Notes: generated by a model from the letters alone, not told the origin. Counted from the stretch's first letter, positions 3,807 to 32,000 are shown. The stretch: 32,000 nucleotides of DNA from Desulfocapsa sulfexigens DSM 10523 (GCF_000341395.1 NC_020304.1:960001-992000), one strand, 5' to 3'. A program made the numbers and translations.

Positions 3807-3826
3807 CAAAATTTGGAGGATAGAAA

Positions 3827-4069: not shown

Positions 4070-4098
4070 GCTCACCACAAACAGAGGACTTACACATC

Positions 4099-5280: not shown

Positions 5281-5304
5281 TATTACCACATAATAGATAA
5301 AGCA

Positions 5305-5332: not shown

Positions 5333-5360
5333 GGATATTAATTTTTCAGGAGGGAAATGA

Positions 5361-7316: not shown

Positions 7317-7349
7317 TCAATTAAGAACTAACGATTAGGAATACAACCA

Positions 7350-8920: not shown

Positions 8921-8935
8921 TAAAGGTGTTATAAA

Positions 8936-11999: not shown

Positions 12000-12043
12000 T
12001 ATAATTTCAGCTTTTTACGAGCTAGACATATTAAGGTGCATTC

Positions 12044-17531: not shown

Positions 17532-17785
17532 TAACACCACTCTCCATATGTATTCCCTGTCGATCCACCACTCAAACAGTAAGAAGGAATGACTCAACAC
17601 TCTGAGTCACTTCTCCCCTACGGCCTACAAGATACGCTGAGCTTTGCTCAGCGCAACGGCCGGTGTCAGCTGCCCCAAGCAAATCTGTGGACCAAATTTG
17701 TGCGAAGAGAAATGATCCAAGAACGGAAAAAGTACATTCGAAGAACCGCGCTACCCAAGGTCAGCTGGATACCATTGATAACCAA

Positions 17786-18070
17786 TTATTTTCGTTTTTT
17801 CGCCTTTTTATAGACTAAATTTTTGTCTCTTTTGCCGATAGCAATTACGTAAACAAAAACTTCTTCATCAACTACTTCATAAACAAGCCGGTATCCGCTT
17901 GCTCTGAGTTTAATTTTGTAGTGGTTCTCAAATCCAGACAGGCGACTACCAGAAACATGTGGCGATTCTAGGCGTTCTTTTAATTTTTTCTTGAATTGTG
18001 ATTGTATAGTGTTGTCTAGTTTTTTCCATTCCTTAAGGGCGGTTGGGAGGAATTTTAATTTATAGCTCAT
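17786..18070 (-). CDS. RelE/StbE (ParE superfamily) toxin
   Basis: 94-aa ORF with a family-typical sequence (LKFLPTALKEWKKLDNTIQSQFKKKLKERLESP ... YRLVYEVVDEEVFVYVIAIGKRDK). Overlaps the antitoxin gene by 11 nt. Confidence 0.9.
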   Translation of the reverse strand: MSYKLKFLPTALKEWKKLDNTIQSQFKKKLKERLESPHVSGSRLSGFENHYKIKLRASGYRLVYEVVDEEVFVYVIAIGKRDKNLVYKKAKKRK

Positions 18071-18311
18071 CTAGTGTAATTTCCACAGCTGAGATTTTTT
18101 CAATTTCCCTTTCTTTTACTATAATTCCTAGTTGGTGATCCTCTAGTCTTTCCAGTAGTGCTTCATATGTTTCTGCTGGAATTAAATATGCAGTCGGCTT
18201 GTTGTGATTGAGAATAGCGATTGGTTCACCATCTGACTGATCTATCAAAGCAGAAGGGTTTTTCTTTAATTCTGATATACTTGCTGAGCGGCTTGCTAGT
18301 ACTGATTCCAT
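18060..18311 (-). CDS. Phd/YefM (StbD-like) antitoxin
   Basis: 83-aa ORF. ISELKKNPSALIDQSDGEPIAILNHNKPTAYLIPAETYEALLERLED is typical of Phd/YefM antitoxins. Lies immediately upstream of the RelE-like gene. Confidence 0.9.
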   Translation of the reverse strand: MESVLASRSASISELKKNPSALIDQSDGEPIAILNHNKPTAYLIPAETYEALLERLEDHQLGIIVKEREIEKISAVEITLDEL

Positions 18312-18416
18312 TGATTCACCTATAATATGATTTTTTATTATGGTTTAATTATAGGTCTTAATTGTGGTCTTGTCGAGTTTTATCATTTTTCTGCTTAACG
18401 GTCGCTGTTGAGCAAA

Positions 18417-18684
18417 TAAAAGGGCAAGTCTCCCTTTGACCTATAGAGCCAAGCAAAAGCCAAAAGCAGATTTTCCCCCTTTCGTTACTAAGAAAAAAAA
18501 TTATGATTATTTCGGAAATTCACCTTGTCATACCATTCTTTTGTCATTCACCAGCTTGATCCTACCCCGTTCCTAATTGGACATGATACAAAGCACCTTG
18601 ATATACCATACGTAGTAGCCTTGATATGTTTTTACTTTATCATACACTCACCACATAGGTCAAAAGGAGACTTGACCCTTTTTT
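18417..18684. repeat. About 268-bp unit bounded by 27-35-bp inverted repeats (MITE-like or ORF-less insert) in the spacer after cassette 3
   Basis: AAAAGGGCAAGTCTCCCTTTGACCTAT (18417-18444) pairs with ATAGGTCAAAAGGAGACTTGACCCTTTTTT (18655-18684), with two mismatches in the core. No convincing ORF inside. Confidence 0.4.
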
Positions 18685-18758
18685 TCTCCTTAATTTACCC
18701 GGAAAGGTGGCCTGGAAACCGAGCTGCTTGTTTTCCAGTGCATACAATTGTTATACAA

Positions 18759-18980
18759 TTATAGTTTTTTTTCAGTCTGAAAGCCAGGAGGGGAATCAGA
18801 GGCATTCTCCTCGTCGCACATTTCTGCACAGATGATGCTAACTTTTTTTGCAAAGTTTGTCGGCAGTCGATGTATATTAGGCTCCGCACTAGACATTAAA
18901 TGTGCAATTTCATTAATTGTTGTATTTTGCATGTTTAGATCTTTTGGTGTTGTGTTGAAAAATTTCTTTAGTTTATTCAT
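18759..18980 (-). CDS. Small hypothetical protein (73 aa from ATG 18980; the longest ORF starts at 19019)
   Basis: ORF directly after the 295-aa gene, on the same strand. Its stop lies 2 nt before a GTATAAC core site. Weak RBS. A possible helix-turn-helix-like stretch (TTINEIAHLMSSAEPNIHRL). Weakly supported. Confidence 0.3.
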   Translation of the reverse strand: MNKLKKFFNTTPKDLNMQNTTINEIAHLMSSAEPNIHRLPTNFAKKVSIICAEMCDEENASDSPPGFQTEKKL

Positions 18981-18994
18981 TTCCGAGGCACCAA

Positions 18995-19882
18995 TTAAAG
19001 ATTGTTGACAGCGTGACAAATTGATTTTGCAATTAAGTCAGCTGTGAATTTTAAAGAATCTACATGGGTGATATTAAAGGTATTCTTTTTTCGAGATGTA
19101 ATATGCAGCAATCCTATCATGCTGATCCCTTGGCCATCGTAGCCATTGAGGGGAGCAACCATCATTGTTTTTACTTCATCAGGGTATTGGTCATCATTTT
19201 TTGTTTTTTTATAGAATTCTTGTTTTGATGCTCTTTCTAAATCATTAAAAATGAGAATCCCTTGCTCTTTTTTCTTTAGGAAAAAACTAGGTATGCCCTC
19301 ATCAGAGCATATCGCCTCTGATGTTTTATAACGGTTTTTGTTAAAACCAGAGGATCTTGCAATAGTATAGTAGGTGATTTTATTTACACCTTCGATGTCT
19401 TTTTCTTTAGCAAGTCTTATGGCAACTTCGATAGAATCGTCCTTCAATAATCTAATGTAGTAATCTTTAAGATGGTCACATATTTTACCCGTGAATTTTC
19501 GTAAGAATTTTATCTCGTGTTTCTCATTTCTTTTTTGGTGAGAATGCCTCCTTTTACATATTTTTGTTTGATAATCTCTTAGGAAATGGGAAAGACTATG
19601 TAAGTAAAACTTAATATCTAATGATCTTATAGTTCTAAGCCTCAAATAAAAGAATGAAGCGCAGAATATTAAGGAAAAAAGAAATACCAAAACCAAAAAT
19701 ACTGATTTCATTTCTATGATTCTGGTACTTTTAAAATGTTCTGGCCACCAGAAAGGAGTCCCCATTGATATAATGGTTATTAGTACAGTTATTAAGAAGC
19801 CACGAAGCCTTGAAAAAAAGCCAAGTGCTCCTATCTGCCATGCATTCCTTCCATCTTCAAAGTGGTCTACACATTCAGACAT
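18995..19882 (-). CDS. Integron cassette protein: two-TM N-terminus plus GAF-like C-terminal domain
   Basis: 295-aa ORF. Hydrophobic segments FLITVLITIISMGTPFWW and VFLVLVFLFSLIFCASFFYL. The C-terminal pattern (AIRLA ... YYTIARS ... MMVAPLNGYDGQGISMIGLLHITS ... LKFTADLIAKSI) resembles GAF domains. Confidence 0.7.
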   Translation of the reverse strand: MSECVDHFEDGRNAWQIGALGFFSRLRGFLITVLITIISMGTPFWWPEHFKSTRIIEMKSVFLVLVFLFSLIFCASFFYLRLRTIRSLDIKFYLHSLSHFLRDYQTKICKRRHSHQKRNEKHEIKFLRKFTGKICDHLKDYYIRLLKDDSIEVAIRLAKEKDIEGVNKITYYTIARSSGFNKNRYKTSEAICSDEGIPSFFLKKKEQGILIFNDLERASKQEFYKKTKNDDQYPDEVKTMMVAPLNGYDGQGISMIGLLHITSRKKNTFNITHVDSLKFTADLIAKSICHAVNNL

Positions 19883-19925
19883 TCATTGTTCTCCTAATTG
19901 TAAAGATCGTACGTATTGGTGGATA

Positions 19926-20056
19926 GTATAAAGCCAACGCAAAGCTAAGACGCGCGCCTAGCCGGGGTTAAATTAAGTTCGAGTTGTAATGAGATGGCCG
20001 AAGCCGTTTAAGCAAAGCGCAAGTTTGCGCGTCGTGCTTGAGCGAATTGTTATAAC
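19926..20056 (-). other. attC candidate of cassette 2 (about 130 bp)
   Basis: On the minus strand it opens with G-TTATAAC (20056-20049), 2 nt after the stop codon. It contains imperfect inverted arms (core GACGCGC / GCGCGTC) and closes with T-TTATAC (19932-19926). Its length is in the usual attC range. Confidence 0.45.
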
Positions 20057-20058
20057 TT

Positions 20059-20826
20059 TTATTTTTTAATTACCCTTATTATCTCTGATAGTAAGAAGTC
20101 TAAATCATTTGAGAAATCGATCTGTGTTACGTTTGGCAGAGACTCAGAACTTCTTATTTGAGAATGCAAATAATAATCGGCTATTTTTCTTGAACTATTC
20201 TCAAGATGCTGCATTGATTCTTTAAACGATTTTGCTCCAGAGTAATTATTTGCTACTTCTGAAAACTTAGAACAGTTTAAGATAGGTGGAATATGATCAA
20301 GTATTGCTCTTGTGACCATGATTATTGAGAGATAACACTCACCAGCAAAGTTTATGTTCATTTCCTCACATAAACGAACCAATTTGCTCAAGTCATATTT
20401 TTTATTGGATAAAGCTTTCAGCTCATTAATGCGGTCAGGGTCGACATAGGCTCTTGAGACAGTTTGGATTTTAATTTCTTTTCTTCCACTTTGTTTTGCT
20501 TCGTTTTGTGCTTTTGCTGGCGCTGACAAATTTGATATTTTAATTTTTAATGGTAGGCTTCCAAGCCAGCGAAGACGACTTTGGACTCTCATCCGAAATA
20601 TTGACCAAGAAGATGGGTCATCATAATAACTACCACCAACTACTAAATTTGAATCTCCTTGAGCAGCCCATTCTGCCGAAAGACCACTGTCGGGGAATTT
20701 GGTTGTCAGCCAATCTGTAACTTCATTTACCCAATAGTTAAACTCGCTATGGGTTTCGACAGGCTCATGCTCATCGAGCAGAATTTGCCCCTTTGCAACA
20801 ATTTTATCTAGTCCTTCAAGTGGCAT
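20059..20826 (-). CDS. Integron cassette protein, hypothetical (two helical domains joined by a Lys/Ala/Gln-rich linker)
   Basis: 255-aa ORF bounded on both sides by GTTATAAC core sites. No family recognised. Confidence 0.75.
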   Translation of the reverse strand: MPLEGLDKIVAKGQILLDEHEPVETHSEFNYWVNEVTDWLTTKFPDSGLSAEWAAQGDSNLVVGGSYYDDPSSWSIFRMRVQSRLRWLGSLPLKIKISNLSAPAKAQNEAKQSGRKEIKIQTVSRAYVDPDRINELKALSNKKYDLSKLVRLCEEMNINFAGECYLSIIMVTRAILDHIPPILNCSKFSEVANNYSGAKSFKESMQHLENSSRKIADYYLHSQIRSSESLPNVTQIDFSNDLDFLLSEIIRVIKK

Positions 20827-20845
20827 ATTTCTCTTTATTTACAAG

Positions 20846-20976
20846 TTATAACGTTTGAACTCAGCGGAAAAATAAAATACGTGGCCAGGAGCTTTTCATT
20901 AGCAAGTGCCATTTTACGTGACGGAAACTACACAAACCCCGGACCTCATTTTTTCCGCTGAAGTGACTTGTTAGTG
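20846..20976 (-). other. attC candidate of cassette 1 (131 bp)
   Basis: On the minus strand: R''-like CACTAAC (20976-20970), 4 nt after the stop codon. A perfect 12-bp inverted repeat TCAGCGGAAAAA / TTTTTCCGCTGA (20861-20872 and 20950-20961). R'-like GTTATAA (20852-20846). Confidence 0.5.
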
Positions 20977-20980
20977 TCTG

Positions 20981-22366
20981 TTATCTTGGTATTTTTGATA
21001 GTAAATTTCCAAATGTATCTGCAAATGTTTTTAGGGCATGCTCATCAATTACTTTTGGATCTGTTTCTTTATAATCATATGCTTGTCCAAATATTTTTTC
21101 ACAGAGTTGTTTCTTGAGATTTTTTTGTTCATCCTCATCTAGGGTGCTAATGAATGGATCGAAAGCCTTAATCTGCAAGGCGAACCATCTGTTTCGTTTT
21201 TCATTGTTTCTGTGAACTGTGGATTGTTGTGCAGAATAAGCACTACCCCAAAGAAGAACACCAGATATTGAAAAAGTTGAAAACAGTTTGAACCAAAGAA
21301 GAGCCCCACTTGTTTGAGCTTTCGATGAGGATATAGATTCACTCTTTTTGCTCTGGTCTGTTGTTACTATTTTAGATTTAGCTATATCTTTTGACGGAGG
21401 TCTCGTAACAGCTTCTTCAATCTTGGTGGTGAGTTTTTCCGTTATGTTTTTTTCTTTAAAATTAGTGTGGTAGGAAAATAGTAACCAAAATACAGTGAGA
21501 ATGATAAAGCCTACAGATACGAAACGCCATTTATTAGCCTCAGTTTTTTCTTGGTTTGCATTTTTTAAATAACCTGCACCAACACTGTCACGAGCAGTAA
21601 TTTCGTACAATTCAAGAATTGACTTATGTTTTTCATCACTGTCTGAGAGAATACTTGATATTTTTTGTTCAAATTCAGATTCATTTTCTGATAGCTTTTC
21701 ATTGTACTTGGAGATAACAGTGTCTATCTCAGCCAACTTCTCTTCTGAAAATTTATCGCGCCAATCCGTAAATGATTGACTACGATTTTCTTGGGCAGCT
21801 GAAAATTGCTGTTGCCATTCAGATATGTGACCGTCAATTTCTTGCTTTTTAGTATCTATTTTATCTGACAGTTGCTGCAACTGGGTCTCATTGGTTTTTG
21901 ACGAATCAGATAAATTTTCTAGTATTTTACTTAGCGCATCCTTCTTTGAAATTAACGTTGAGCTTATTGTGTCAATAAGTTGTTCAAGTTCTTTAATCGG
22001 AGGCTCAATAGAATAACTTGTTGTCATTCCCATGAGTAATGATAATTGTGTTAATTGGTTTGCTATTAGATCATTTGCACTTGTCAGATGTGCTACATTT
22101 CCATTGGATTTGTATGAAGTTAATTGTGAGGAAATGTTTTGGTGCCTTAGCTGAGTATTTAGTGAGTCTAGTTGGTTGTACGGGACAATTTCAGGGTCAA
22201 TTTTTCGCAAGGCCTCTTCGTACATAGATACTATTTTTAGTAGCCTTCTTTTTTCAATAATCTCATCTTCATCTAAGTCGTTAAAATTCTCAGAGACATT
22301 ATCTCGAACCCAATTCAATGTTTCATGGATAGGATGGTTCTCAAGTTTTTCTTGCCAACGGTTCAT
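20981..22366 (-). CDS. Integron cassette protein: long coiled-coil N-terminal domain, two TM helices, short C-terminal domain
   Basis: 461-aa ORF. Residues 1-270 are heptad-rich and acidic or Ser-rich (QLQQLSDKIDTKKQEIDGHISEWQQQFSAAQE). TM helices FVSVGFIILTVFWLLFSY and ALLWFKLFSTFSISGVLLWGSAY. First cassette next to attI. Confidence 0.8.
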   Translation of the reverse strand: MNRWQEKLENHPIHETLNWVRDNVSENFNDLDEDEIIEKRRLLKIVSMYEEALRKIDPEIVPYNQLDSLNTQLRHQNISSQLTSYKSNGNVAHLTSANDLIANQLTQLSLLMGMTTSYSIEPPIKELEQLIDTISSTLISKKDALSKILENLSDSSKTNETQLQQLSDKIDTKKQEIDGHISEWQQQFSAAQENRSQSFTDWRDKFSEEKLAEIDTVISKYNEKLSENESEFEQKISSILSDSDEKHKSILELYEITARDSVGAGYLKNANQEKTEANKWRFVSVGFIILTVFWLLFSYHTNFKEKNITEKLTTKIEEAVTRPPSKDIAKSKIVTTDQSKKSESISSSKAQTSGALLWFKLFSTFSISGVLLWGSAYSAQQSTVHRNNEKRNRWFALQIKAFDPFISTLDEDEQKNLKKQLCEKIFGQAYDYKETDPKVIDEHALKTFADTFGNLLSKIPR

Positions 22367-22559
22367 TCTATTCTCTGGGTTTAAGGTTTATGAAGATGAT
22401 AGGTTATTGGACACTAACAGTGTTAATACATGGACAATGTCCATCATAGTACCTTATATATAGCCACTTTTTCCACTTATTTTGATATTAATAGCTTTAT
22501 ATGGAAAAAAGTGTCCACTTATTACTTTTTTCTTCATTTTGTCCATGTAATGCGATATT
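22367..22559. promoter_or_regulatory. attI / divergent promoter region of the integron
   Basis: Spacer between the intI start and the first cassette start. The minus strand carries GTTAGTG at 22418-22412 (GTTRRRY-like core). Several TGGAC/GTCCA repeats, including the palindrome ATGGACAATGTCCAT (22430-22444). Confidence 0.45.
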
Positions 22560-23579
22560 ATGATGGGTATCATGGAGAATAAGACAAAATTTACCCCAAA
22601 CCCTAAGTCAAAATTAATGGATCAAGTTCGAGAGACCTTGAGATATTATCATTATGCTCATTCAACTGAAAAAACATATTGTCAGTGGATTTTGAGATAT
22701 GTCTATTTTTACGATAAAAAGCGACATCCAAAAGAAATGGGAGGCCGCGAAGTTGAGAGTTTCTTATCTCACCTGGCAACACATGGAAAAGTGGCTGCTT
22801 CAACCCAGAGACAAGCTCTCAATGCATTAGTTTTTTTATATCGCGATGTTCTTCAAATTCCTCTTGATCAATCTATCGCCCCCATTCGTTCTAAACGCAA
22901 ACCTCATCCCCCAACCGTTCTTACAGAAAACGAAGTTGAGAGGGTGTTCGCACAAATGAAGGGCACCCATCTACTAATGGCCAAATTGATTTACGGAACT
23001 GGTATACGCCTAATGGAGTGTATTCGTTTGCGTATACAGGATATTGATTTTGGCCAGAGGCAACTGTTTATCCGCTCCGCAAAAGGTGGAAAAGATAGAA
23101 CGACATTTTTGCCTCGTTTTGTTCACGACGAACTTCATGAGCATGTCGAACGTGTAAAAAAACTGCATCGCCAAGATCTTGAGCAAGGCTTTGGCGAAGT
23201 GTATCTACCAAATGCACTAGCCAGAAAATATCGAAAAGCAGCTTGGGAAACATCGTGGCAATACGTATTCCCAAGTAAATCACGATCTATAGATCCAAGG
23301 AGCAAAAAAGAACGTAGACATCACGTACTTGAGTCAGGCCTGCAAAAAGCTGTTAAATCGGCTGTGAGAAAGTCAGGGATCGACAAGCGGGCAACCGTCC
23401 ATACTCTTCGCCATTCCTTCGCTACACATATGCTTGAAAATGGAACCAATATCCGTGTGCTTCAAGATCTTCTTGGACATGCTGATGTGAAAACAACAGA
23501 AATATATACCCATGTTATGCGAAAGGATATTGATGGGTTGCAAAATCCGCTGGATCGTCTGTACAGCAAATCCAATTAG
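22560..23579 (+). CDS. intI: Integron integrase (IntI, tyrosine recombinase)
   Basis: 339-aa ORF that aligns by eye along its length with IntI1-type proteins: [88 protein letters not shown]. It has the IntI-specific insertion [24 protein letters not shown] ... [12 protein letters not shown]. The start may be ATG 22572. Confidence 0.95.
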
Positions 23580-23795
23580 AAGGAAAATCCTTCAAATAAA
23601 CTGCCGTCCATTAAAACAGAAGAGTTATATTTGTTCAATGAATAGTTGTGCTATTTCACTGATAATTCTAATACTATTTTGCAGAGACGTGCGGTAAAAA
23701 GGGTAACTATCGTGTAATATAGGCAGGTTTAGATGTTTCCTGAATATACGTAATAAAACCTAATTTTGCGAAGTGTCGACAACTACAATTAACAA

Positions 23796-23930: not shown

Positions 23931-24581
23931 TCAGACAGTAAGGAGGAATGACTCAATACTCTCTGCAACTTCCTGCTCCCTGCCAAGAAAAAAATGGTCA
24001 CTTCCCAAGATTTCATGGATGGTAGCATGTAACGTCACATTGTTTTTTTGTTGAATTAGAAGATTATCGTTTTCAGCAAAAAGCAGCAGAGTTTTGCAGC
24101 CTACACTCCTTAATGGTTCAAAATCGTGTTCACCCAGAGGCGGGGTAATTGCACTAAAGCTGAGAGCAGTCCCGAGTGCGGAGAGCCCAATAAAACTGCC
24201 GAAGGAGTACCCGACCAGATGGAAATTTGAAAAATACCTGGAACTCCACCGTATCACCTCTTCCGTATCACAAATGATTTCAGAAAAGTCATTTTGCTTA
24301 TCCAGCCTGTCCCAGTATTCAAACAGGGGCAGATCTGGTTCTGCCTTGAAACTTTTTCCCACCCCACGATAATTAAAGGAAAGCACCGGAAAATGATATG
24401 CCAGCGTTTCAGCCAGGGCAGAGACAACATTGTTGTCCATATTTCCTGCAAGGAGTGGATGGGGAGAACAGAGAATTACCCCCGGTTGACCGCTGTTTTC
24501 TTCCCTGTAAGTGAGCCTCCCTTCCAGACTCCCGAGCATACAGGGTATGCTTACATCCTGACTGAAATGGGAGCTCATCAA
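23931..24581 (-). CDS. Alpha/beta-fold hydrolase
   Basis: 216-aa ORF with the nucleophile elbow GYSFGS and a C-terminal GSDHFF. ATGA overlap with the preceding gene. Confidence 0.85.
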   Translation of the reverse strand: MMSSHFSQDVSIPCMLGSLEGRLTYREENSGQPGVILCSPHPLLAGNMDNNVVSALAETLAYHFPVLSFNYRGVGKSFKAEPDLPLFEYWDRLDKQNDFSEIICDTEEVIRWSSRYFSNFHLVGYSFGSFIGLSALGTALSFSAITPPLGEHDFEPLRSVGCKTLLLFAENDNLLIQQKNNVTLHATIHEILGSDHFFLGREQEVAESIESFLLTV

Positions 24582-25609
24582 TACACTCCACCACTCTTCT
24601 TTTGGTGAAAACTAAGACCTTCAATATTGCTGATCCCCTGTTCACCATCCCTCATAACCCGAACAGCAGTGTCCCGTTCAAGCATATTTAGAAGCAGAAA
24701 AGATCTGTCGAAACGGTGAAACATAATCCGGCCACGTTGCCCTTCCGGGACTGTATCTGCTAAACGTGGCGGTTCATGTTTATCTTTTGGCAAAGGGAGA
24801 AGATGCAGATGAAGTGACGGATCGTGAACAAAAAAGACAGAAGGTTCTCCCATAATCTGCTCGGATTCAAAGGTTACCCCAAAGAGACTGTTACCATATC
24901 CGGGAAGAATCACTGCAGCAGGAAAGAGCCTTGCAAGCTGCTGGCTGGTCTCACTATCCTGAGCCATACCTCCTGTGTGGATACCCGTAATCTGTAGCCG
25001 TTGCTTCTCTGTCATCTGCTTAGCAAGGACGAGGAGAAGTGGCGGGGTTGTAAAGAGAACCGTAATCTCCTGCTGATTGATAATATTTAAGGCCTGAGAG
25101 CTGAGGTGATCCATATAGAGCATATGGCCCATTGAATTCGGCTGCTGCTGCTTTACCCAACGGACATCACAGTCAATGGAAAAAGGTTCAAGACTATCAG
25201 TAGCACGGGCAAAGGCTCTTGCTGCCTGTGCAATAACATGGGGCCCTGATGGCCCGACAAAGAGCCACTTTTGATGTGTTGGAAAATGAAAGCGCCTCAC
25301 TGCCTGAAGCCAGGGAGCAACAAATGCGGCATGAAATTCTTCTGGCAAATAGACCCTGCGACACGGATTGCCTGTGGTACCACCAGTTTCAGCAAGAATC
25401 ATCTCTGCCATGCAACCGTGGAGTGAACGTGGAACAAAATCAGTAATCGGTCTGCTCCGCATTGCCTCCACATCCATGGGACCAAGCAGCTGCAGATCAT
25501 TGATTTCCTGGAAATCCCGACGCTGCAGATCTTTCCTCTTAAGAGCATCCAGCCAGTATGGTGTGCCGGTATCGGAATCAAAATGAATATCAAGGATCTG
25601 CTCAAACAT
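24578..25609 (-). CDS. PaaK / coenzyme-F390-synthetase-like adenylate-forming enzyme
   Basis: Start placed at ATG 25609 (MFEQILD), with RBS GGAGAG and an 8-nt overlap with the exporter gene. AMP-binding-type P-loop variant ETGGTTGNP. Size and layout are like small ANL-superfamily ligases. Confidence 0.75.
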   Translation of the reverse strand: MFEQILDIHFDSDTGTPYWLDALKRKDLQRRDFQEINDLQLLGPMDVEAMRSRPITDFVPRSLHGCMAEMILAETGGTTGNPCRRVYLPEEFHAAFVAPWLQAVRRFHFPTHQKWLFVGPSGPHVIAQAARAFARATDSLEPFSIDCDVRWVKQQQPNSMGHMLYMDHLSSQALNIINQQEITVLFTTPPLLLVLAKQMTEKQRLQITGIHTGGMAQDSETSQQLARLFPAAVILPGYGNSLFGVTFESEQIMGEPSVFFVHDPSLHLHLLPLPKDKHEPPRLADTVPEGQRGRIMFHRFDRSFLLLNMLERDTAVRVMRDGEQGISNIEGLSFHQKKSGGVY

Positions 25610-27578
25610 TATTTTTCTCTCCTTCCATAAGCAGGACAGGCAGGATGGACAGGTCACAGATCAGTGCCATCCACAGGGACAGACTGATCAAAAGACCAAA
25701 ATAACCAAGCGGTATAAAGGGGGAGGCCAAAAAGGCAAGAAAACCGGTACCTGTCACCAGGGTAGTGGTAATTATGGGGGCTCCTACCTCCCTGAAAACC
25801 TGATCCAGTCGCTGGCGGGGCCTCAGATGTTTATCCTGATTCTGGTAACCGTAGAGAAAATGAATGGTATCATCGACAACAACACCAAAAATAATAGAGG
25901 CAACGGTAATAGTAGCCACTGACAGCGGAATGCCAAACCAGCCCATAACGGATATCACGAGAACCACGGGCAGCAGATTTGGAACCATGGCGATCAGTCC
26001 CATCTTTATCGAACGCAGTAACAATCCGATAAGGAGGGAAATGGCAACAAAGGCCACACTGAAACTTTGCAGCATTGAAGAAAAAAGCTCCTTCTGTCCT
26101 CGCGTGTAGAGGGGGACGGATCCTGTAACGTAGGGCGTGGTCGAGTGGCCAAGATTGCTCTGAAAAAACGCTTCCATCTCATCTGCAATGGCAAGTGTTG
26201 CCTCTGAAGAGATCGTCTTTATAAGAATGGTCAAACGTTCAACCTTCTGGTTGCTCGAAAAAAAATCTGGCAGCAGCATGGTGGCACCAAGACTGACAAC
26301 CTGCTCCGATTGATTTGTCATGGTATACACATAATGGGTAATTTCAGGATGTTGAATGGCAAGCTCCTTTAAATGGCCATCAAGCTCACTTCTAAACAGT
26401 GGCTGTCGGAAAAGATCTATCTCAATGGGGGTGAGACCAACTCCAGCATCTTCAATGGCCTGATAGTTGAGACGTACCACGGAGTTATCGGTGAAAAAAT
26501 CCAAGATCAGAGATCCTTTTTGCAGGCGTCCAATACCAAATCCAGCTACAAGTAGAGCCAACAGCAAGGCAAGGAGAATTTTTCTTCTCTTTCGGAAAAG
26601 GAAAAGGCTTGTACCTGCAGGCAGAACCAGCCTTTTGGAAAAGCTACCCGGCTTCAGAAAGACCGGCACAAGAATAAAAGTGACAAGCAACGATATCAAC
26701 GTTCCAACGGCCCCCCAGAGACCAAGTTCACGAACCGGCCCATAGCTTGAAAAGAGGAGTGAGCCAAAGCCCATTGCCGTCGTTACTCCAGACAATGCAC
26801 AGGGAGGTGCAACTCTACAGAACACATTTATAGGTGTATCGCCAGGATTCCACCTTTTTATGCTGAAATGAATCCCATGGGCCATGCCGAGAATAAGGGT
26901 CAGCGGAGGCAGGGCAAGAAGAACCATATTCATTTTGACCCCACACAAGCCAATAAGTCCCACCAGGAGCACAGCCGAAAGTAACCCACAACTCAAGATC
27001 AGCAGAGCCTGCGTTCTGCATAATAGTAACACAGCAATACTCACCACCAGAAGAACGACCGGAAAAAGGACAGTGGTGGCTTTAGCCGACAGGGTATCCA
27101 GCTGTTTGGTAAGGTACCAGACACCGCCCAGATGATAGGTCTCCACCTGATGCGCCTTCATAATCGGTGGTATTTGTTTGAGTATCTCAGCCAATTGTGC
27201 AGGATTGGCCGTACCTACCGGCATAAGAGTAAGAAGACTTCCCCGTGTCCCCTGGACGGTTTCAAGTCCCACACTCCTGCAGGAACTGACATCCGGAAGG
27301 GTTTTGAGTGCTTTCCTTATCTGGACAAGAGTCAGACCTTTCACTTGCCGGGGAATAAAAATAAGCAGGGGATCTGAAATATTGGTTCGTTTTAGAAATT
27401 GCTGGTAGGCCAACCAGTCTGGAGAATCTGCTGACTGCCACACCTCAAGTGAATTATCAACCTGACTTTTCGATGCGCCATAGCCCCCGACAACAGCAAG
27501 AAACACCATCAGGATCACAACCCACAGGCGATGTCGGCGCAGATTTGCAGCAAAGCGGGAAAGTGTTGTATCCAACAT
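25602..27578 (-). CDS. MMPL/RND-superfamily membrane exporter
   Basis: 658-aa ORF. It has an N-terminal TM segment, a soluble loop and a TM bundle, and this pattern occurs twice. Sequence resembles MMPL/HpnN-type lipid exporters (for example VVDDTIHFLYGY). Confidence 0.88.
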   Translation of the reverse strand: MLDTTLSRFAANLRRHRLWVVILMVFLAVVGGYGASKSQVDNSLEVWQSADSPDWLAYQQFLKRTNISDPLLIFIPRQVKGLTLVQIRKALKTLPDVSSCRSVGLETVQGTRGSLLTLMPVGTANPAQLAEILKQIPPIMKAHQVETYHLGGVWYLTKQLDTLSAKATTVLFPVVLLVVSIAVLLLCRTQALLILSCGLLSAVLLVGLIGLCGVKMNMVLLALPPLTLILGMAHGIHFSIKRWNPGDTPINVFCRVAPPCALSGVTTAMGFGSLLFSSYGPVRELGLWGAVGTLISLLVTFILVPVFLKPGSFSKRLVLPAGTSLFLFRKRRKILLALLLALLVAGFGIGRLQKGSLILDFFTDNSVVRLNYQAIEDAGVGLTPIEIDLFRQPLFRSELDGHLKELAIQHPEITHYVYTMTNQSEQVVSLGATMLLPDFFSSNQKVERLTILIKTISSEATLAIADEMEAFFQSNLGHSTTPYVTGSVPLYTRGQKELFSSMLQSFSVAFVAISLLIGLLLRSIKMGLIAMVPNLLPVVLVISVMGWFGIPLSVATITVASIIFGVVVDDTIHFLYGYQNQDKHLRPRQRLDQVFREVGAPIITTTLVTGTGFLAFLASPFIPLGYFGLLISLSLWMALICDLSILPVLLMEGEKNNV

Positions 27579-27583
27579 AGGGA

Positions 27584-29038
27584 CTACTTTTTCCGAAATG
27601 ACACAGCCCAGGAGCCTATAAACTTCATACCAGAATTCTTCACAGCATAATTCACCCGATTTTTCACCAGATCCTTTGGCCCCTGGCCCAAAATTTCAGC
27701 CAGTGATTTCAAAAAATAATCAATCTGCTCCTCGGTGATAACCAAAGGAGGATACACCCGAAGCACTGCCCGGTTATTGAGCATCAGGGTACCGAGTATA
27801 CCATGTTGCTTGAGCAGTGCCGCTGCAACCATTCCGGGAAGATGTTCACGAAGCACTGATTTTAAACCGGGTAATTTCAATGGCAGATATTTAGCCTGAT
27901 CAATCACATCAACGTCAAATTCAATGCCTGCCATCAGGCCACGCCCCCGCACATCTTTGATCCACTCCGGATACTCGCCCTGTAGACGTTTAAGGCCATC
28001 CAGCAACTGTTTTCCACGCTCCTGAGTATTGAGCAGGAGATTCTCTTCCTGTAAGACCTCAAGAGCTGCCATGGCGGCTGCACAGGATGTTGCCCGGCCC
28101 CCGAAGGTTGATGTCTGTACAAGGCAGTCATGGGGATTTTCATATGCAGTTTGAAATACCTTGGAGGTGGTAATGGTGGCCCCAATGGTGGCCACGCCAC
28201 CCCCCAGAGACTTGGCCATGGCAACAATATCAGGAACAACCCCTTCCTGCTCACAGGCAAGGAATGTCCCGGTACGTCCCATGCCGGTCTGAATTTCATC
28301 GAGTATCAGCAATACTCCGAAACGATCGCATAATTCCCGTACCTCACGCAGATACCCAACCGGCGGAATCATAATCCCGGCCTCTCCCTGGATGGGTTCC
28401 AGAATAACCGCCGCCACCTGTTGTCTACCGTCCCGCTTGTTTTGTTCCAGCAGGTGTTCCAGTTCATCGCTCTTGCCATAGGGTACATGTTGAGCTGGAA
28501 GCGTTGGAAAAAATTCACGAAGACGTTCACTGCCGGTAACCGATAATGCCCCTATTGTTTTGCCGTGAAGCGAATTGTCCGCATAGATAAACACAGGTCG
28601 TTCCCCTTTAAAACAGCGGGATGCCATCTTTAATGCAGCCTCAACGGCTTCTGTTCCCGAGTTGCAGAAGTAGACCTTGGAGAGGTCACCGGGAAGCAGC
28701 AATGACAGATTGTGGGCCAGAAAAGCGGTATAAGGGGAGAGGAGTTCCTTGGAAAGGTCGACTCGCTGCTGATTTTGAACATCCTGCACAGCACGGATAA
28801 TTTTGGGGTGATTATGGCCAAAATTCAAGGCGCCATAGGAGGAGACAAAATCAAGAATCTCTTTGCCATCGCTTGAGGTAATTACCGCTCCCCGTGCACT
28901 CTGCGGATTTATGGCCGTATATTCACCGATCTCCAGAAGCGCCACCAGCCCAGGATTAATATGTTCACGAAATTTTTCCACTGCCTCTGTATAGGGACGC
29001 TCTGTAACTTCATCTACGGGAATCCAGTCAGTATGCAT
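27584..29038 (-). CDS. Class-III PLP-dependent aminotransferase
   Basis: 484-aa ORF with LILDEIQTGMGRTGTFLACEQEGVVPDIVAMAKSLGGG (PLP lysine in AKSLGGG) and CNSGTEAVEAALK. Confidence 0.95.
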   Translation of the reverse strand: MHTDWIPVDEVTERPYTEAVEKFREHINPGLVALLEIGEYTAINPQSARGAVITSSDGKEILDFVSSYGALNFGHNHPKIIRAVQDVQNQQRVDLSKELLSPYTAFLAHNLSLLLPGDLSKVYFCNSGTEAVEAALKMASRCFKGERPVFIYADNSLHGKTIGALSVTGSERLREFFPTLPAQHVPYGKSDELEHLLEQNKRDGRQQVAAVILEPIQGEAGIMIPPVGYLREVRELCDRFGVLLILDEIQTGMGRTGTFLACEQEGVVPDIVAMAKSLGGGVATIGATITTSKVFQTAYENPHDCLVQTSTFGGRATSCAAAMAALEVLQEENLLLNTQERGKQLLDGLKRLQGEYPEWIKDVRGRGLMAGIEFDVDVIDQAKYLPLKLPGLKSVLREHLPGMVAAALLKQHGILGTLMLNNRAVLRVYPPLVITEEQIDYFLKSLAEILGQGPKDLVKNRVNYAVKNSGMKFIGSWAVSFRKK

Positions 29039-29040
29039 TT

Positions 29041-30462
29041 TTATGGGTGAGCAAGTAGAGGTTCAAAGTGATAGGGATACTCACGGAAAAATTCTTCCAG
29101 AGCCGTTGCAGTACGCAATGCCTCCCTGGGGTTGGCCACCAGCTGAATGGCCCCCTGGAAAAAACCCTGCTGAGGCGACATTTTTCCAGAGGCAACTTGC
29201 AAAAATGTGTTGCCATCGGTGGTGTATCCAAAATTTCCTGATGATCCTCTGGCAATCCTTATCAATATCCCGTTCATAATGGTAACTGTCCAGGTAGTAT
29301 AGCCCTTGATCTCAATTTGAAGACAGGCTGAAAGGGATGCCAGATTCTTGATTAACGGCTTTCCGGTATACTGTGGTAGAAAATGAGTAAAATAGCGTTC
29401 AAGGTGAAATTGCTCATCGTGGCTGACTCCTCTGTCGAGTTCCTTTTTAGTGGAAAGAAAGATGATAAACGCGGAAAGGAGATCTTCTTCTTTAATGGCA
29501 GGCAAAACCTCCTTCCCCAGAGAATCTTCCAGATTATCTCTGGCAAACGTTGTGGTCAGATTAAGGTAGGGAGCATACACCTTCGTCTTTTTCGAGAGGA
29601 TTTTTTCTGGCCTTGTTAACTCTTCTTTCTCAACGCCGGCGGCAGTAACCCATGCAACAGCCTCCCTTGCAAAAGCCTGATTAAAAACCCGTGCCAGAGT
29701 ATCATTTGGGAGGGCTACAGCTGGTGTGAGATGGTATGTTTTCCCGTGATCACCACTTTTTTCGGCAAGATCCGCAAGTGCTAAGGCCACATCATCATTA
29801 AAGACAAAGGGCAGATGAGCCCTGGGATTCCCTTCCACCCGCAAGGTCTTGAGACGGTTTTTCCGTTTGGCACCTTCAAGACAGAGGCGAAACACCCCGT
29901 CCAAAAACACAAAAGGGCCAAAGACAGAGATACTGGCCGCAGTTGGTCTTCGTTCCAGAACAATTGATGGTCTATACACCGTATACTGTGGAGATGGTTC
30001 CTCACGCAGAACACACTCCCCTCTGTATTTGGACTCTTCATAGAAGTTATGAAAACCTTGCCCTTCCTGCAGCTGATCTTCCCGAAATTCTCCTCCCCAG
30101 TCACCGCAGACAAAGGCGGTGGACACGTGATGGAGCCAGGCTCCACTGATCAGGGCCAGTTCTTTGATATGGCGCACACCTTCAATGTTTACGGCTCCAT
30201 ACTCTTCAAGAGACTTGCCCTTGAAATCCGTTCGTGCAGCGAGATGAAAAATGCTGTCAACCTCCCGGCACAGTTGTTGCCATTCTTCGTCAGGCAAACC
30301 CAGCAAGGGTTTACTTACATCCCCTGTCAGCCAGCGCAGCTGAGAGCTGTCTGGCTCTTCGGGATGACGACAAAGAGCTGTTACCCTCTGTCCCCGCGCC
30401 AGAAGAAGATCAATTAAAGGACGGCCGATGATACCACTGCCCCCTGTCACCAGAACGGTCAT
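29041..30462 (-). CDS. Thioester / acyl-CoA-reductase-like extended SDR fused to a C-terminal SCP2 lipid-binding domain
   Basis: 473-aa ORF. Rossmann motif VTGGSGIIG. Catalytic Y-x-x-x-K (YEESK) in the N-x-Y-x-x-S-K context of terminal reductase domains. C-terminal about 110 aa with an SCP2-like pattern (GKMSPQQGFFQGAIQLVANPREALRTATALEEFF). Confidence 0.88.
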   Translation of the reverse strand: MTVLVTGGSGIIGRPLIDLLLARGQRVTALCRHPEEPDSSQLRWLTGDVSKPLLGLPDEEWQQLCREVDSIFHLAARTDFKGKSLEEYGAVNIEGVRHIKELALISGAWLHHVSTAFVCGDWGGEFREDQLQEGQGFHNFYEESKYRGECVLREEPSPQYTVYRPSIVLERRPTAASISVFGPFVFLDGVFRLCLEGAKRKNRLKTLRVEGNPRAHLPFVFNDDVALALADLAEKSGDHGKTYHLTPAVALPNDTLARVFNQAFAREAVAWVTAAGVEKEELTRPEKILSKKTKVYAPYLNLTTTFARDNLEDSLGKEVLPAIKEEDLLSAFIIFLSTKKELDRGVSHDEQFHLERYFTHFLPQYTGKPLIKNLASLSACLQIEIKGYTTWTVTIMNGILIRIARGSSGNFGYTTDGNTFLQVASGKMSPQQGFFQGAIQLVANPREALRTATALEEFFREYPYHFEPLLAHP

Positions 30463-31700
30463 GACAAATGCCCCTGACTGGCAGCTGCCTCGTTCCAGCG
30501 TTTCTGCTGCTGAAGAGTCTCCTCGGCCGTGGGAATATGGTTGACCAGCCTTCGAATATTTGCCTCCATGGTGGCGATATAACCTTTCAGCAACTCCGGA
30601 CCATTGGTCTTAAGATGCTTTGCTGCCCATCTATCACAATGACCGCAGCCTTCACAGCCGAGACGGCAATCCGGTTCCGTCCTGTGAAAATAATCAAGAA
30701 AGCCAGACAGCTCATCATTTTCAAGACTAATTTCCAGAGGATCAAGCTTCGTCCCATCAGCCTGCTTTCGAAATTGCAGCCAGTGAGGCCAACCAAGCAA
30801 GGCCAGCAAATTTCCCTTAAATTCTCCCTGCAGATAAAACCTGGCCCGATCTAACAACTCGCCACTCTCAAGTCCCCGTCCGGCAATCTTAAAATGATGG
30901 AGTCCAATTTCTTCATAGAAATGCAGATCCTCAGGACGTACCCAGGGACTGCGCATAAACTCGCCGGGGTTTTTTAGTTTCTCCAGATAACACCAGTTAA
31001 GATAATACTGATTATAGGGATGACCACAACCGTCCTTGTGAATATGACCTCCAGAAGCGGCAGTGCAATAGTGATTAAATTTAAAATGACATTGATAGAG
31101 ACAGACCGGGTTCACAACAATCTCCAGATCGACCCTGCTCCCTGGCGTCACACGGCGCAAAAAACGAAAATCGCGATTCACCTCCACGTCGAGGACAATT
31201 CGACTGGCTCCAATCTCTTCAAACTGATTAATACCACGTTTGGCCCCCACATAGCCAATGGTGGAAACAACCACCTCGAGTTCCGGGAAGCTGCTCTTGA
31301 TAATATCCACAAGATATGGTGCTGTAACTGTAACGGATGCGACTCCACAATCACAAAGGAACTGCAACAGCTCCTCAAACTCCTGGCGCCCGTCATGGGT
31401 GTACTCAAAATTGGCGTAACTGGGGGAGTTAAGCAGGTAATTGAAGGCAATATCCTGATCGAGCGCCAGACGCACATGTTTTTGAAATTCTGATCTGCTG
31501 ATAAGAGGGAGATATTTAGCGGGCCGTGCAGAATGAAAAGAGCCGTGCTGAAAAGAACCGTAGAGTTCAAAGACCCTTCCGCCACTCTCGCTATAGCGGC
31601 TGTTGAGTTCAGCAAGATCAGTAATAAAACCATCGCTAAAGCTGGTGGGCAATGTTATGCGTCTCGAAGAGAGTACCTGACTGCTTTTTTTCTGTGTCAT
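30459..31700 (-). CDS. Peptidase-U32-family protein (UbiU/UbiV/RlhA-like Fe-S enzyme family)
   Basis: 413-aa ORF. Its TIM-barrel-like pattern parallels E. coli UbiU by eye (ELLQFLCDCGVASVTVTAPYLVDIIKSSFPELEVVVST ... RRVTPGSRVDLEIVVNPVCLYQCHFKFNHYC). Extra C-terminal Cys cluster CRLGCEGCGHC. ATGA overlap with the reductase gene. Confidence 0.8.
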   Translation of the reverse strand: MTQKKSSQVLSSRRITLPTSFSDGFITDLAELNSRYSESGGRVFELYGSFQHGSFHSARPAKYLPLISRSEFQKHVRLALDQDIAFNYLLNSPSYANFEYTHDGRQEFEELLQFLCDCGVASVTVTAPYLVDIIKSSFPELEVVVSTIGYVGAKRGINQFEEIGASRIVLDVEVNRDFRFLRRVTPGSRVDLEIVVNPVCLYQCHFKFNHYCTAASGGHIHKDGCGHPYNQYYLNWCYLEKLKNPGEFMRSPWVRPEDLHFYEEIGLHHFKIAGRGLESGELLDRARFYLQGEFKGNLLALLGWPHWLQFRKQADGTKLDPLEISLENDELSGFLDYFHRTEPDCRLGCEGCGHCDRWAAKHLKTNGPELLKGYIATMEANIRRLVNHIPTAEETLQQQKRWNEAAASQGHLS

Positions 31701-31715
31701 TCGATAGTAGGTCGC

Positions 31716-32000
31716 TCAAAAAGAATCCATGGCAAAAGGGTATGACCCTATCAATGTGGCCTTTTGCGTGGAGTGATGGAAACGGTACAGGTCAATGGAT
31801 AGATCGCGACTGTACTCCTTTTGAGGAAAAATCACTGCAAAGCTTTTCTCTTCTCCCGGGGCAAGTACTGAAGAAATATTAATTTTCTTCTTTTCAACCA
31901 CTGTTCCATCAGGCTGCCGCCAGCTGAGGACAACAAAAAGCTCCTTAGTACCATAGGTTCCCGTAGGTAAATCATGGGGCAGACTGTTTTTCAGCCTAAA
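31716..32000 (-). CDS. Partial CDS (C-terminal 94 codons; the gene continues beyond the window edge), beta-rich hypothetical protein
   Basis: The minus-strand frame is open from the window edge to the stop at 31716, 15 nt before the U32 gene start. The sequence is protein-like (TKELFVVLSWRQPDGTVVEKKKINISSVLAPGEEKSFAVIF). Confidence 0.5.
   Translation of the reverse strand, partial: FRLKNSLPHDLPTGTYGTKELFVVLSWRQPDGTVVEKKKINISSVLAPGEEKSFAVIFPQKEYSRDLSIDLYRFHHSTQKATLIGSYPFAMDSF

Follow-up and report, generated by a model that had tools for sequence, protein, structure and literature searches.

A conserved seven-gene operon of Desulfocapsa sulfexigens that probably turns a membrane-bound aromatic acid into an exported amine without oxygen

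The window analysed here is a stretch of 32,000 nt from the 3.99-Mb chromosome of Desulfocapsa sulfexigens DSM 10523 (GCF_000341395.1, NC_020304.1:960001-992000); the U32-family protein that it encodes is 100% identical to AGF77436.1. At one end it carries most of an operon of seven genes and ~8.8 kb, whose probable function is the oxygen-independent conversion of a membrane-bound aromatic acid, likely a precursor of menaquinone, into an amine exported towards a periplasmic cytochrome. Conversion of an acid into an aldehyde and then an amine, on a lipid that is subsequently exported, appears likely. A naphthoate or quinone-type substrate has a little less than an even chance of being the right one. 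Taken as a whole, a modified and exported lipid amine of naphthoquinone type, made under anoxic conditions, was the best explanation, and is proposed tentatively. What we infer, from comparisons of sequences, structures and gene neighbourhoods, is the chemistry of all steps, which substrate is used, in which direction it is transported once modified, and what the cytochrome does.

Six minus-strand open reading frames (ORFs) occupy positions 23931-31700. In the direction of transcription they code for a predicted U32 Fe-S enzyme (30459..31700, 413 aa, AGF77436.1), a reductase (29041..30462, 473 aa, AGF77435.1), a class-III (omega) aminotransferase (AT; 27584..29038, 484 aa), a resistance-nodulation-division (RND) transporter of HAE3/HpnN/MMPL type (25602..27578, 658 aa), a truncated EhpF-type ligase of the ANL superfamily (LIG; 24578..25609, 343 aa, UWK_00858, AGF77432.1) and an alpha/beta-hydrolase (ABH; 23931..24581 or 24578, 216 or 215 aa). 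The reductase combines an extended short-chain dehydrogenase/reductase (SDR) domain of thioester-reductase type (29473..30462, ~aa 1-330) with an SCP2 lipid-binding domain (29071..29403, aa 354-464). The original prediction had described these six genes as one unit. They are as it described them, but the unit comprises seven and starts with the gene of a pentahaem lipoprotein cut by the end of the window, of which only the 3' end (31716..32000, minus strand, last 94 codons and stop), coding for the C-terminal non-haem domain, is present. The whole cytochrome gene (321 aa, AGF77437.1) can be read at 2411-3376 of a public contig (L001), with the same sequence as the window.

The cytochrome stop codon (31716-31718) lies 15 nt upstream of the U32 start. 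The following junctions are a 4-nt overlap (U32/SDR), gaps of 2 nt (SDR/AT) and 5 nt (AT/RND), an 8-nt overlap (RND/LIG) and a 4-nt or 1-nt overlap (LIG/ABH). These overlaps and small gaps, with coupled start and stop codons, bear out the earlier claim of one operon on one strand. For the ligase, the deposited start, an ATG at 25609 (343 aa), is also the one supported by orthologues; an alternative GTG at 25657 would give 359 aa and a 56-nt overlap with the pump gene. The operon corresponds to UWK_00863 to UWK_00857, a numbering extrapolated from UWK_00858, the single tag retrieved. Scans for promoters and terminators in the operon and in the region upstream of the cytochrome gene gave counts indistinguishable from shuffled sequence; the sigma-54 promoter pattern was not above chance frequency, and Rfam gave no match in either the window or L001.

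Conservation of this gene block was followed with an alignment of the U32 protein, scanned against one genome per species and then against metagenomes, which gave 113 loci (L002-L114); targeted look-ups added further loci, and 107 remained after removal of redundancy. The genome scan was pattern-based, its best 80 matches being listed. Among loci whose U32 protein was at least 53% identical to that of the window, 22 of the 23 with at least 7.6 kb of downstream DNA carried SDR, AT, RND, LIG and ABH genes in the same order, and the cytochrome gene was present in 41 of the 42 with at least 1.1 kb of upstream DNA. The co-conservation elsewhere on which the original prediction had chosen to be judged was therefore found. 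This class comprised Desulfocapsaceae, Desulfobulbaceae, Desulfurivibrionaceae, Desulforhopalus, Desulfopila and Hydrosulfovibrio, and Desulforhopalus singaporensis and Desulfopila aestuarii are among the species with the cluster. Beyond the cytochrome-to-hydrolase block, genes differed from family to family, and since the block stays intact while its flanks vary, the seven genes form a conserved module rather than background synteny. One exception was encountered in a metagenome-assembled genome (MAG) resembling Desulfocapsa (L014 9028-12674; L088; L089), where cytochrome, U32 and SDR-SCP2 were retained, AT, pump and ligase were lost and the hydrolase was present as a fragment only; this copy looks like a decaying or re-purposed one. 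A MOSC gene and a PAS-histidine-kinase gene upstream were rejected as operon members, being found only in the closest relative or not conserved. Cable bacteria labels (Electrothrix, Electronema) occurred on none of the 33 Desulfobulbales cluster loci among the best 80 matches, from which absence does not follow; Hydrosulfovibrio ferrireducens has the cluster.

Core and accessory genes were told apart from more distant relatives, with U32 proteins 36-53% identical to that of the window. Variant A, in Desulfobulbales, has the order cytochrome - U32 - SDR·SCP2 - AT - RND - LIG - ABH. Variant B, from high-GC groundwater contigs (L118, L127, L128), reads U32 - SDR-SCP2-AT polypeptide - (RND) - LIG - ABH; the cytochrome is absent and a thioredoxin-like lipoprotein, or its N-terminal domain, is found nearby. 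Variant C, from a Lentisphaerae MAG and related untyped contigs (L084, L125, L129), is organized as U32 - SDR·SCP2 - LIG - YceI - ABH - ABC ATPase - ABC-2 permease, without aminotransferase or RND transporter, and in L129 a dihaem cytochrome c gene lies 137 nt upstream of U32. Variant D, from Nitrospirota (L036/L132), reads U32 - MqnE - MqnA - SDR - SCP2 - LIG - ABH - MqnC. By this comparison, the ancient core consists of U32, SDR, SCP2, LIG and ABH. Around it, three parts can be added or exchanged: the aminotransferase, an exporter of RND or ABC-2 type, and a periplasmic partner, which is a pentahaem or dihaem cytochrome c, YceI or a thioredoxin-like lipoprotein. The six genes had been presented as members of one pathway; this holds for the conserved core, but AT and RND are accessory. 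When the U32 protein was less than 36% identical, an SDR partner was found in none of 42 loci, and searches with tblastn and family hidden Markov models detected none of the other cluster genes beside distant U32 relatives (29-36% identity). The latter belong to other systems, including those with B12-binding radical S-adenosylmethionine (SAM) proteins, SPASM radical SAM proteins and molybdopterin enzymes.

An indication of the substrate came from variant D. On L132, a 36-kb Nitrospirota contig, eight co-directional genes, which overlap by 1-8 nt or lie at most 21 nt apart, follow each other in the order U32, MqnE, MqnA, SDR, SCP2, LIG, ABH and MqnC, the shared proteins being 40% (U32), 28% (SDR), 37% (SCP2), 42% (LIG) and 36% (ABH) identical to those of the window. 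MqnE (TIGR03700, 528 bits against a cut-off of 434) and MqnC (TIGR03699, 490 against 428) passed their models, and the VitK2_biosynth protein is of MqnA type since it matches chorismate dehydratase structures. This operon has neither exporter nor periplasmic partner. It is followed by a PAS/GAF histidine-kinase gene, then by an MTAP-like nucleoside phosphorylase and an amidohydrolase with a below-cut-off match to the aminofutalosine-deaminase family. The second link is a fusion protein (P0376, 823 aa) consisting of an MqnD-type domain, SDR and SCP2, whose SDR-SCP2 part aligns over residues 3-464 of the window protein and whose MqnD-type domain is closest in the PDB to AF1704 and TTHA1568, the latter deposited as 'menaquinone biosynthetic enzyme'. 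MqnD makes 1,4-dihydroxy-6-naphthoate, an aryl carboxylate. Its prenylated form is a predicted membrane-bound intermediate of the futalosine pathway, the late steps of which are predicted rather than demonstrated (PMC4746308). Because of the mqn interleaving in L132 and the MqnD-SDR-SCP2 fusion, a naphthoate was favoured over a fatty acid, and the fatty acyl substrate assumed previously is probably not the right one. Further mqn-linked clusters did not emerge, the metagenome scan returning the same Nitrospirota contig only; the close relatives P0131, P0204 and P0205 lie on contigs of at most 2.2 kb.

The ligase also points to an aryl carboxylate, as judged from the annotation of its relatives together with the MqnD fusion of the reductase. 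When a profile was built from 18 orthologues, EhpF (3l2k/3hgu) was its only convincing solved relative, matched at E = 3e-36 with profile positions 4-351 covering 22-366 of the 366 residues of EhpF. The match runs end to end, so that this 343-aa protein lacks the C-terminal ANL subdomain, and the P-loop TGGTTGNP is invariant. Relatives on plasmids (tblastn, 27-31% identity) are annotated either as 'phenazine antibiotic biosynthesis protein', in which case an aldehyde-dehydrogenase-family gene follows (ehp-like cluster, L121), or as 'arylcarboxylate reductase', adjoining a type I polyketide synthase. The enzyme had been called PaaK-like, a name that had to be replaced by EhpF-type truncated ANL, no PaaK match being found in Pfam or the PDB. 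PaaK, LuxE and F390-synthetase were likewise rejected as identities, with only sub-threshold AMP-binding matches in Pfam and NCBIfam and EhpF alone in the PDB. The adjoining hydrolase matched Abhydrolase_1 (1.1e-6), and its family profile retrieved only uncharacterised small hydrolases from the PDB (3trd at 6e-27, 2i3d, 2fuk). Its GYSFG nucleophile elbow and D171/H195, forming a Ser-Asp-His set, are invariant, and it occurred in every cluster variant, always next to LIG. Thioesterase, esterase and acyl carrier are its possible roles. Acyl transfer from the carrier-less ligase to the SDR has two candidates, the hydrolase serine and Cys147 of LIG, a residue invariant in orthologues and absent from EhpF.

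The SDR domain matched NAD_binding_4 (PF07993) at 1.6e-30 and, under its cut-off, the thioester reductase model TIGR01746 (1.2e-24). Among solved structures it is closest to the terminal reductase domains of MxaA (4u7w, 1e-20), AusA and carboxylic acid reductase (CAR). The GxxGxxG motif and Y141-x3-K145 are conserved, and over 150 relatives Y141, K145, S114 and T115 reach at least 90% conservation. The SCP2 domain passed its Pfam model (4.9e-5, 24.0 bits against a cut-off of 21.3), also matching SCP2 chains in the PDB, and SCP2 is a separate gene in Desulfurivibrionaceae, Hydrosulfovibrio and a Nitrospirota genome. The free-standing 125-aa protein of Hydrosulfovibrio is 51% identical to the window domain and matches SCP2 at 5.2e-8. 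The lipid-binding module recognised in the original prediction is thus genuine and separable. An exhaustive search over 1.84 billion representatives, with the SDR-SCP2 protein of the window as query, found this architecture in 50 of the 98 best representatives at the 50%-identity level and also returned P0376. Other fusions of this reductase family were NAD_binding_4 with LPG_synthase_C (P0456), with a sulfotransferase (P0461) and with classical adh_short (P0419/P0450), which suggests wider lipid-tailoring roles for the SDR clade.

The aminotransferase matched Aminotran_3 at 9.8e-96 and contains the pyridoxal-phosphate lysine motif AMAKSLGGG. Its best NCBIfam models are PigE (NF053554, 422.7 bits against a cut-off of 850, AT part only) and putrescine aminotransferase, and in the PDB it is closest to the putrescine aminotransferase of E. 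coli (4uox, 7e-102) and to PigE (4ppm, 1e-82); with NF008570 it reached 1.9e-120, below the cut-off, and it stayed below every equivalog cut-off. Its association with the reductase is closer than mere adjacency in some relatives: SDR, SCP2 and AT are encoded as one chain in L118 and L127 (949 and 976 aa), covering SDR-SCP2 residues 3-468 and then AT residues 5-484, and are also fused in P0327. This fusion is direct genomic evidence of the reductase handing its aldehyde to the transaminase, and it supports the acid-to-aldehyde-to-amine logic put forward initially. An apparent SDR-AT-thioredoxin fusion of 1371 aa in L128 was discarded, its C-terminal part being a wrong-frame read-through, and counts as adjacency only. 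Another natural fusion, SDR-SCP2-RND (P0367, 1134 aa), ties the lipid-binding reductase to the pump. Four domain fusions were thus recorded among the components: SDR-SCP2, SDR-SCP2-AT, SDR-SCP2-RND and MqnD-SDR-SCP2.

The U32 protein is a divergent member of its family. It matched Peptidase_U32 (PF01136) at 1.1e-8 (35.1 bits against a cut-off of 22.4) over model positions 3-96 of 233 only; its profile retrieved the U32 protein 5d88 from the PDB at 5e-18, and 5d88 was also the sole specific structural match (TM 0.71) of its AlphaFold2 model (pLDDT 92.9). Across 54 U32 sequences, C200, C204, H210, C237 and C345/C349/C352/C355 are invariant, so that candidate ligands are found at C200-x3-C204, H210 and C237 and, towards the C-terminus, at C345-x3-C349-x2-C352-x2-C355. 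In UbiU-like proteins, four cysteines in a CX6CX15CX3/4C motif bind a [4Fe-4S] cluster (PMC6747719); Fe-S binding by the window protein is plausible despite its altered cysteine spacing. It has an even chance of acting as a hydroxylase, by analogy. Its oxidation would then probably be a ring hydroxylation, because of the analogy with UbiU/UbiV and TrhP, the latter named 'prephenate-dependent' by NCBI. The parallel drawn earlier between U32 plus SCP2 and the UbiU/UbiV plus UbiT system was judged reasonable, SCP2 being encoded beside U32 either in the fused next gene or separately.

As an indirect hint of prephenate-dependent hydroxylation, chorismate mutase, AroC and AroA are often encoded close to distant members of this U32 clade. 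U32 relatives with 30-34% identity in MAGs of Syntrophia and Thermodesulfobacteriota were always followed by a B12-binding radical SAM protein of ~500 aa (L039, L045, L055-L057, L061-L064, L066, L069-L076, L080, L081; U32 at ~10001-11200 in those with a complete flank), often with chorismate mutase, chorismate synthase, 5-enolpyruvylshikimate-3-phosphate synthase, Fe/Mn superoxide dismutase and Hsp20 nearby; these loci represent a separate and apparently undescribed U32 system. In Nanoarchaeota MAGs (L037 8850-12000; L043 ~7900-11000), two U32 genes stand in tandem after a SPASM radical SAM gene, which resembles the layout of UbiU/UbiV. Bathyarchaeia (L123/L124, 9001-10203) carry a lone U32 of this clade, 42-44% identical to the Nitrospirota protein, with AhtL-like molybdopterin oxidoreductases, polyferredoxins and a UbiE-like methyltransferase as neighbours. 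Paired SPASM radical SAM genes adjoin U32 (35-39% identity) in L131 (10001-12553) and L130 (5456-8932), with a YggS-like pyridoxal-phosphate protein and a Polyketide_cyc/SRPBCC (Coq10-like) lipid binder downstream in L131. YceI-like ORFs lie beside distant U32 genes of a Planctomycetota MAG (L048 5274-6068, minus strand) and a deltaproteobacterial MAG (L075 7850-8737, plus strand), and an RND gene immediately upstream of U32 on a Pirellulaceae contig (L060 678-2600), so that the link of U32 to lipid-binding and export genes reaches beyond this cluster. Finally, the Lentisphaerae-type untyped metagenome contig L084 has a second, classical U32 gene (4430-5461) ~4 kb upstream of its cluster, matching UbiU (3e-28) and TrhP (1e-25), both below their cut-offs, and followed by a 268-aa ORF without family.

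The pump belongs to the RND superfamily and is HAE3/HpnN-like. It matched MMPL (1.9e-5), HAE3 (TIGR00921, 2.5e-32, 111.8 bits against a cut-off of 351.9) and HpnN (TIGR03480, 1.1e-23, 83.2 against 751.85), the closest solved structures being the HpnN entries 5khn and 6wu0. The proposal that an MMPL pump exports a lipidic product was retained as far as an RND/MMPL-type transporter with HpnN as nearest solved relative is concerned, but the pump is an accessory and not part of the conserved core. Variants with an ABC-2 exporter and without RND also carry YceI. These lipid handlers (SCP2, the HpnN-like pump, YceI) are linked to isoprenoid or sterol lipids through their relatives or through the name of their family. 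As to the cytochrome, it has a lipoprotein signal peptide, 15 orthologues all retain its lipobox Cys16 and five CxxCH motifs, and it matched Cytochrome_C554 (4.7e-9) and Paired_CXXCH in Pfam; its gene thus encodes a pentahaem c-type lipoprotein and is a member of the conserved unit. A periplasmic redox partner recurs independently across variants, as a pentahaem lipoprotein, as a dihaem cytochrome c (L129) or as a thioredoxin-like lipoprotein. A role of the cluster as a marker of sulfur disproportionation was considered and found no support.

These elements can be assembled into the following pathway. The EhpF-type ligase would adenylate the carboxylate of a lipid-bound aromatic molecule, putatively 1,4-dihydroxy-6-naphthoate and probably prenylated, to which an aryl activator encoded with a reductase fused to a lipid-binding domain is a good fit. 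The SDR would reduce the activated acid to an aldehyde while the fused SCP2 holds the hydrophobic part, and in Desulfobulbales the class-III transaminase would convert the aldehyde into a primary (aminomethyl) amine. The U32 enzyme would carry out an oxidation that needs no O2, for which hydroxylation of the ring, of the kind known from UbiU/UbiV, is the most likely candidate. The product, a putative naphthoquinone-type lipid amine, would be moved by the HpnN-like pump to the periplasmic side, where the co-encoded pentahaem lipoprotein would be its partner.

Several known systems resemble parts of this pathway and differ from it in other respects. Like UbiU/UbiV/UbiT (Pelosi et al. 2019, PMC6747719), the operon has a putative U32 Fe-S protein encoded beside an SCP2 module, an anaerobic setting and presumably a prenylated aromatic lipid substrate. 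It differs by a single U32 gene instead of a U/V heterodimer pair, by a non-canonical Cys/His pattern with an extra C-terminal CX3CX2CX2C, by the fusion of SCP2 to a reductase, by a host that is a menaquinone-type anaerobe outside Pseudomonadota and by the coupling to acid reduction, amination and export. EhpF, from D-alanylgriseoluteic acid/phenazine biosynthesis, is a full-length homologue of LIG, the C-terminal subdomain being absent in both. Bera and colleagues reportedly proposed in 2010 that EhpF adenylates an aryl carboxylate for reduction to the aldehyde. Identity is however only ~30%, the genomic context is not a phenazine cluster, and the aldehyde-dehydrogenase-family partner of the ehp-like cluster (EhpG/LuxC-type expected) is replaced here by a NAD_binding_4 SDR. 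TamA/TamH and PigE (PMC5939613, PMC9594044, PMC8341465) share adenylation, thioester-reductase-type reduction and class-III transamination, and TamH and PigE also unite reductase and transaminase in one polypeptide, as do relatives of the operon. In contrast to these systems, the operon has no acyl carrier protein (ACP) or CoA thioester step and no pyrrole pathway, its domain order is SDR-SCP2-AT, U32, SCP2, exporter and cytochrome are added, and the substrate is probably aromatic rather than a fatty acid. With the late futalosine steps (predicted MqnP, MqnL, MqnM; PMC4746308) it would share its substrate, and in the Nitrospirota operon the core is linked to mqnE, mqnA and mqnC, whereas no mqn gene adjoins the cluster of the window; the carboxyl would be reduced, and aminated in Desulfobulbales, instead of being removed by a UbiD/UbiX-type decarboxylase. 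An HpnN-like pump, replaced by YceI and ABC-2 in RND-less variants, fits an isoprenoid-type lipid leaving the cytoplasmic membrane; yet all curated models stayed below their cut-offs and the pump has 658 aa against 877-883 aa for HpnN. Finally, LuxCDE and CAR likewise combine acyl activation and reduction to an aldehyde, with a hydrolase in the former, and CAR reductase domains are among the PDB relatives of the SDR; the operon differs in that a LuxC-type aldehyde dehydrogenase, a LuxE match in Pfam, a phosphopantetheine carrier domain and a multidomain A-PCP-R polypeptide are all absent.

Several observations weigh against a naphthoate-derived, U32-hydroxylated amine. The mqn link consists of one Nitrospirota lineage and one fusion protein, whose SDRs are only 26-28% identical to that of the window; mqn genes were found neither in the window nor beside ~50 Desulfobulbales clusters, no cluster variant had a prenyltransferase gene, and the menaquinone route of D. 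sulfexigens could be futalosine or classical. The closest characterised relatives of the aminotransferase act on aliphatic substrates. Thioester-reductase-type SDRs normally require a thioester substrate, and this one has neither carrier protein nor CoA-forming domain beside it, no PP-binding, ACP or CoA-ligase C-terminal domain being found in the genes of any variant or in the 98 SDR relatives scanned. As to hydroxylation, the U32 protein matched none of the NCBIfam models (UbiU, UbiV, TrhP and RlhA included) at E <= 0.01, it departs from the canonical cysteine motif (PMC6747719), and there is one U32 gene per cluster in every variant, with no paralogous partner. Some of these points favour a fatty acid, freed by the hydrolase in a LuxD-like manner, adenylated, reduced and transaminated to a long-chain alkylamine that is possibly hydroxylated by U32 and exported by RND. 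Such a route has a proven precedent in TamA/TamH and PigE (PMC5939613, PMC9594044, PMC8341465), it agrees with the best models of the aminotransferase and with mqn genes being absent near Desulfobulbales clusters, and SCP2, RND and YceI can be viewed as generic lipid handlers. We nevertheless consider it rather unlikely: the ligase is specifically EhpF-like, without Pfam LuxE match and without PaaK match in Pfam or the PDB, and those of its relatives that have a named function belong to phenazine and aromatic polyketide clusters and carry annotations as aryl-carboxylate enzymes; ACP or CoA-ligase functions are absent. A fatty amine moreover leaves the MqnD-SDR-SCP2 fusion and the mqnE/mqnA/mqnC interleaving unexplained and gives no rationale for cytochrome, YceI and thioredoxin-like partners.

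The mqn link itself can be read otherwise, the U32-SDR-SCP2-LIG-ABH core being a housekeeping alternative to the predicted MqnL/MqnM (UbiD/UbiX) step of menaquinone synthesis, in which the 6-carboxyl is reduced to an aldehyde and lost as a C1 unit through U32 and the hydrolase, with AT, pump and cytochrome as a later add-on. The core of L132, placed between mqnE/mqnA and mqnC with neither exporter nor periplasmic partner, is as one would expect, as are the MqnD-SDR-SCP2 fusion and the widespread SDR-SCP2 architecture (50 of the 98 best representatives), and the late futalosine steps are only predicted (PMC4746308). This proposal remains improbable since most variants have an exporter and a periplasmic protein, indicative of an exported end product, since the fusion of AT to the reductase in some lineages indicates that the aldehyde is aminated and not removed, and since the U32 clade is phylogenetically narrow compared with the futalosine pathway. 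We also know of no precedent for O2-independent deformylation by a U32 enzyme. The resemblance of the aminotransferase to the putrescine enzyme of E. coli (7e-102; NF008570 at 1.9e-120, below cut-off) could alternatively reflect soluble amine or polyamine metabolism, with a putrescine- or diamine-type AT among functionally unrelated neighbours. This is very improbable for a protein that relatives encode as part of a fusion with SDR-SCP2, whose gene keeps strict collinearity with genes of lipid handling, and which remains under every equivalog cut-off. Most examples come from one order, Desulfobulbales, as would be the case if gene order were inherited synteny within that order and the genes formed no functional unit. 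That can practically be set aside given the intact block between varying flanks, the reappearance of the core, its accessories rearranged, in one Lentisphaerae MAG, in one Nitrospirota genome and on contigs of uncultured, untyped lineages, the four different domain fusions and the translationally coupled start and stop codons.

The remainder of the window is composed of other systems. The region 326-12787 begins with a sigma-54 two-component pair (326-3075, minus strand) and continues on the plus strand with a group-4 [NiFe]-hydrogenase-type complex-I/Mrp-like cluster, with two Proton_antipo_M genes (5361-7316 and 8936-10366), NADHdh (7350-8267), Complex1_49kDa (10227-11870) and Oxidored_q6 (12044-12787). 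The genes after this cluster code for a beta-carbonic anhydrase (13137-13727), for an ATP-grasp protein (14013-15194) and for an M24 peptidase that has a SEC-C motif (16512-17600). Directly downstream of the operon, a low-GC island (18000-23600, 35-37% against ~47%) contains a tyrosine integrase (22560-23579, plus strand) and minus-strand ORFs without Pfam family at 20981-22366, 20059-20826 and 18995-19882. No tRNA gene was found near this island, which is probably an integrated mobile or defence element.

A literature search on locus tags, on component combinations and on futalosine together with Desulfobulbales genera yielded no description of this cluster, and the genome paper of D. sulfexigens does not discuss it. 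The earlier statement that no described pathway has this combination thus still stands, no matching pathway and no paper naming the locus tags being found. Each enzyme family is known, as are the kinds of chemistry, O2-independent quinone tailoring and acid-to-amine cascades. What is new is the indicated branch from the futalosine pathway and the way in which the parts are combined: a U32 of one subunit, a thioester reductase fused to SCP2, an EhpF-type ligase without carrier, a transaminase that some variants lack, an exporter and a redox partner in the periplasm. The chance that the product represents a new class of redox lipid is substantial. In its most specific form, this would be a futalosine-derived naphthoquinone with its 6-carboxyl reduced (and aminated to aminomethyl in Desulfobulbales), hydroxylated without O2 by a novel single-subunit type of U32 enzyme and exported to form an extracytoplasmic quinone pool, a reading that we regard as a minority possibility. 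Such a product would be a lipid-soluble electron-transfer partner of the dedicated pentahaem lipoprotein at the periplasmic face or the outer membrane, in sulfur or extracellular electron metabolism. Its makers would be Desulfobulbales, with variant forms in the Lentisphaerae MAG, the Nitrospirota genome and uncultured groundwater lineages.

The proposal is directly testable, DSM 10523 being in culture, the operon having ~8.8 kb and the product being expected to display a distinctive nitrogen-containing mass. Should the substrate be a fatty acid, there would still be novelty in a hydroxy-alkylamine lipid that is conserved, exported and provided with a cytochrome of its own. If the proposed pathway is true, 1,4-dihydroxy-6-naphthoate, an intermediate of a pathway whose late steps are still only predicted, would acquire a new fate, and the poorly understood U32 family a new O2-independent tailoring role outside ubiquinone and RNA modification. 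The carrier-free acid-to-aldehyde-to-amine cascade would be of biocatalysis interest. Desulfobulbales include sulfur disproportionators and relatives of cable bacteria, and for this order the operon would provide a candidate exported redox lipid tied to periplasmic cytochromes.

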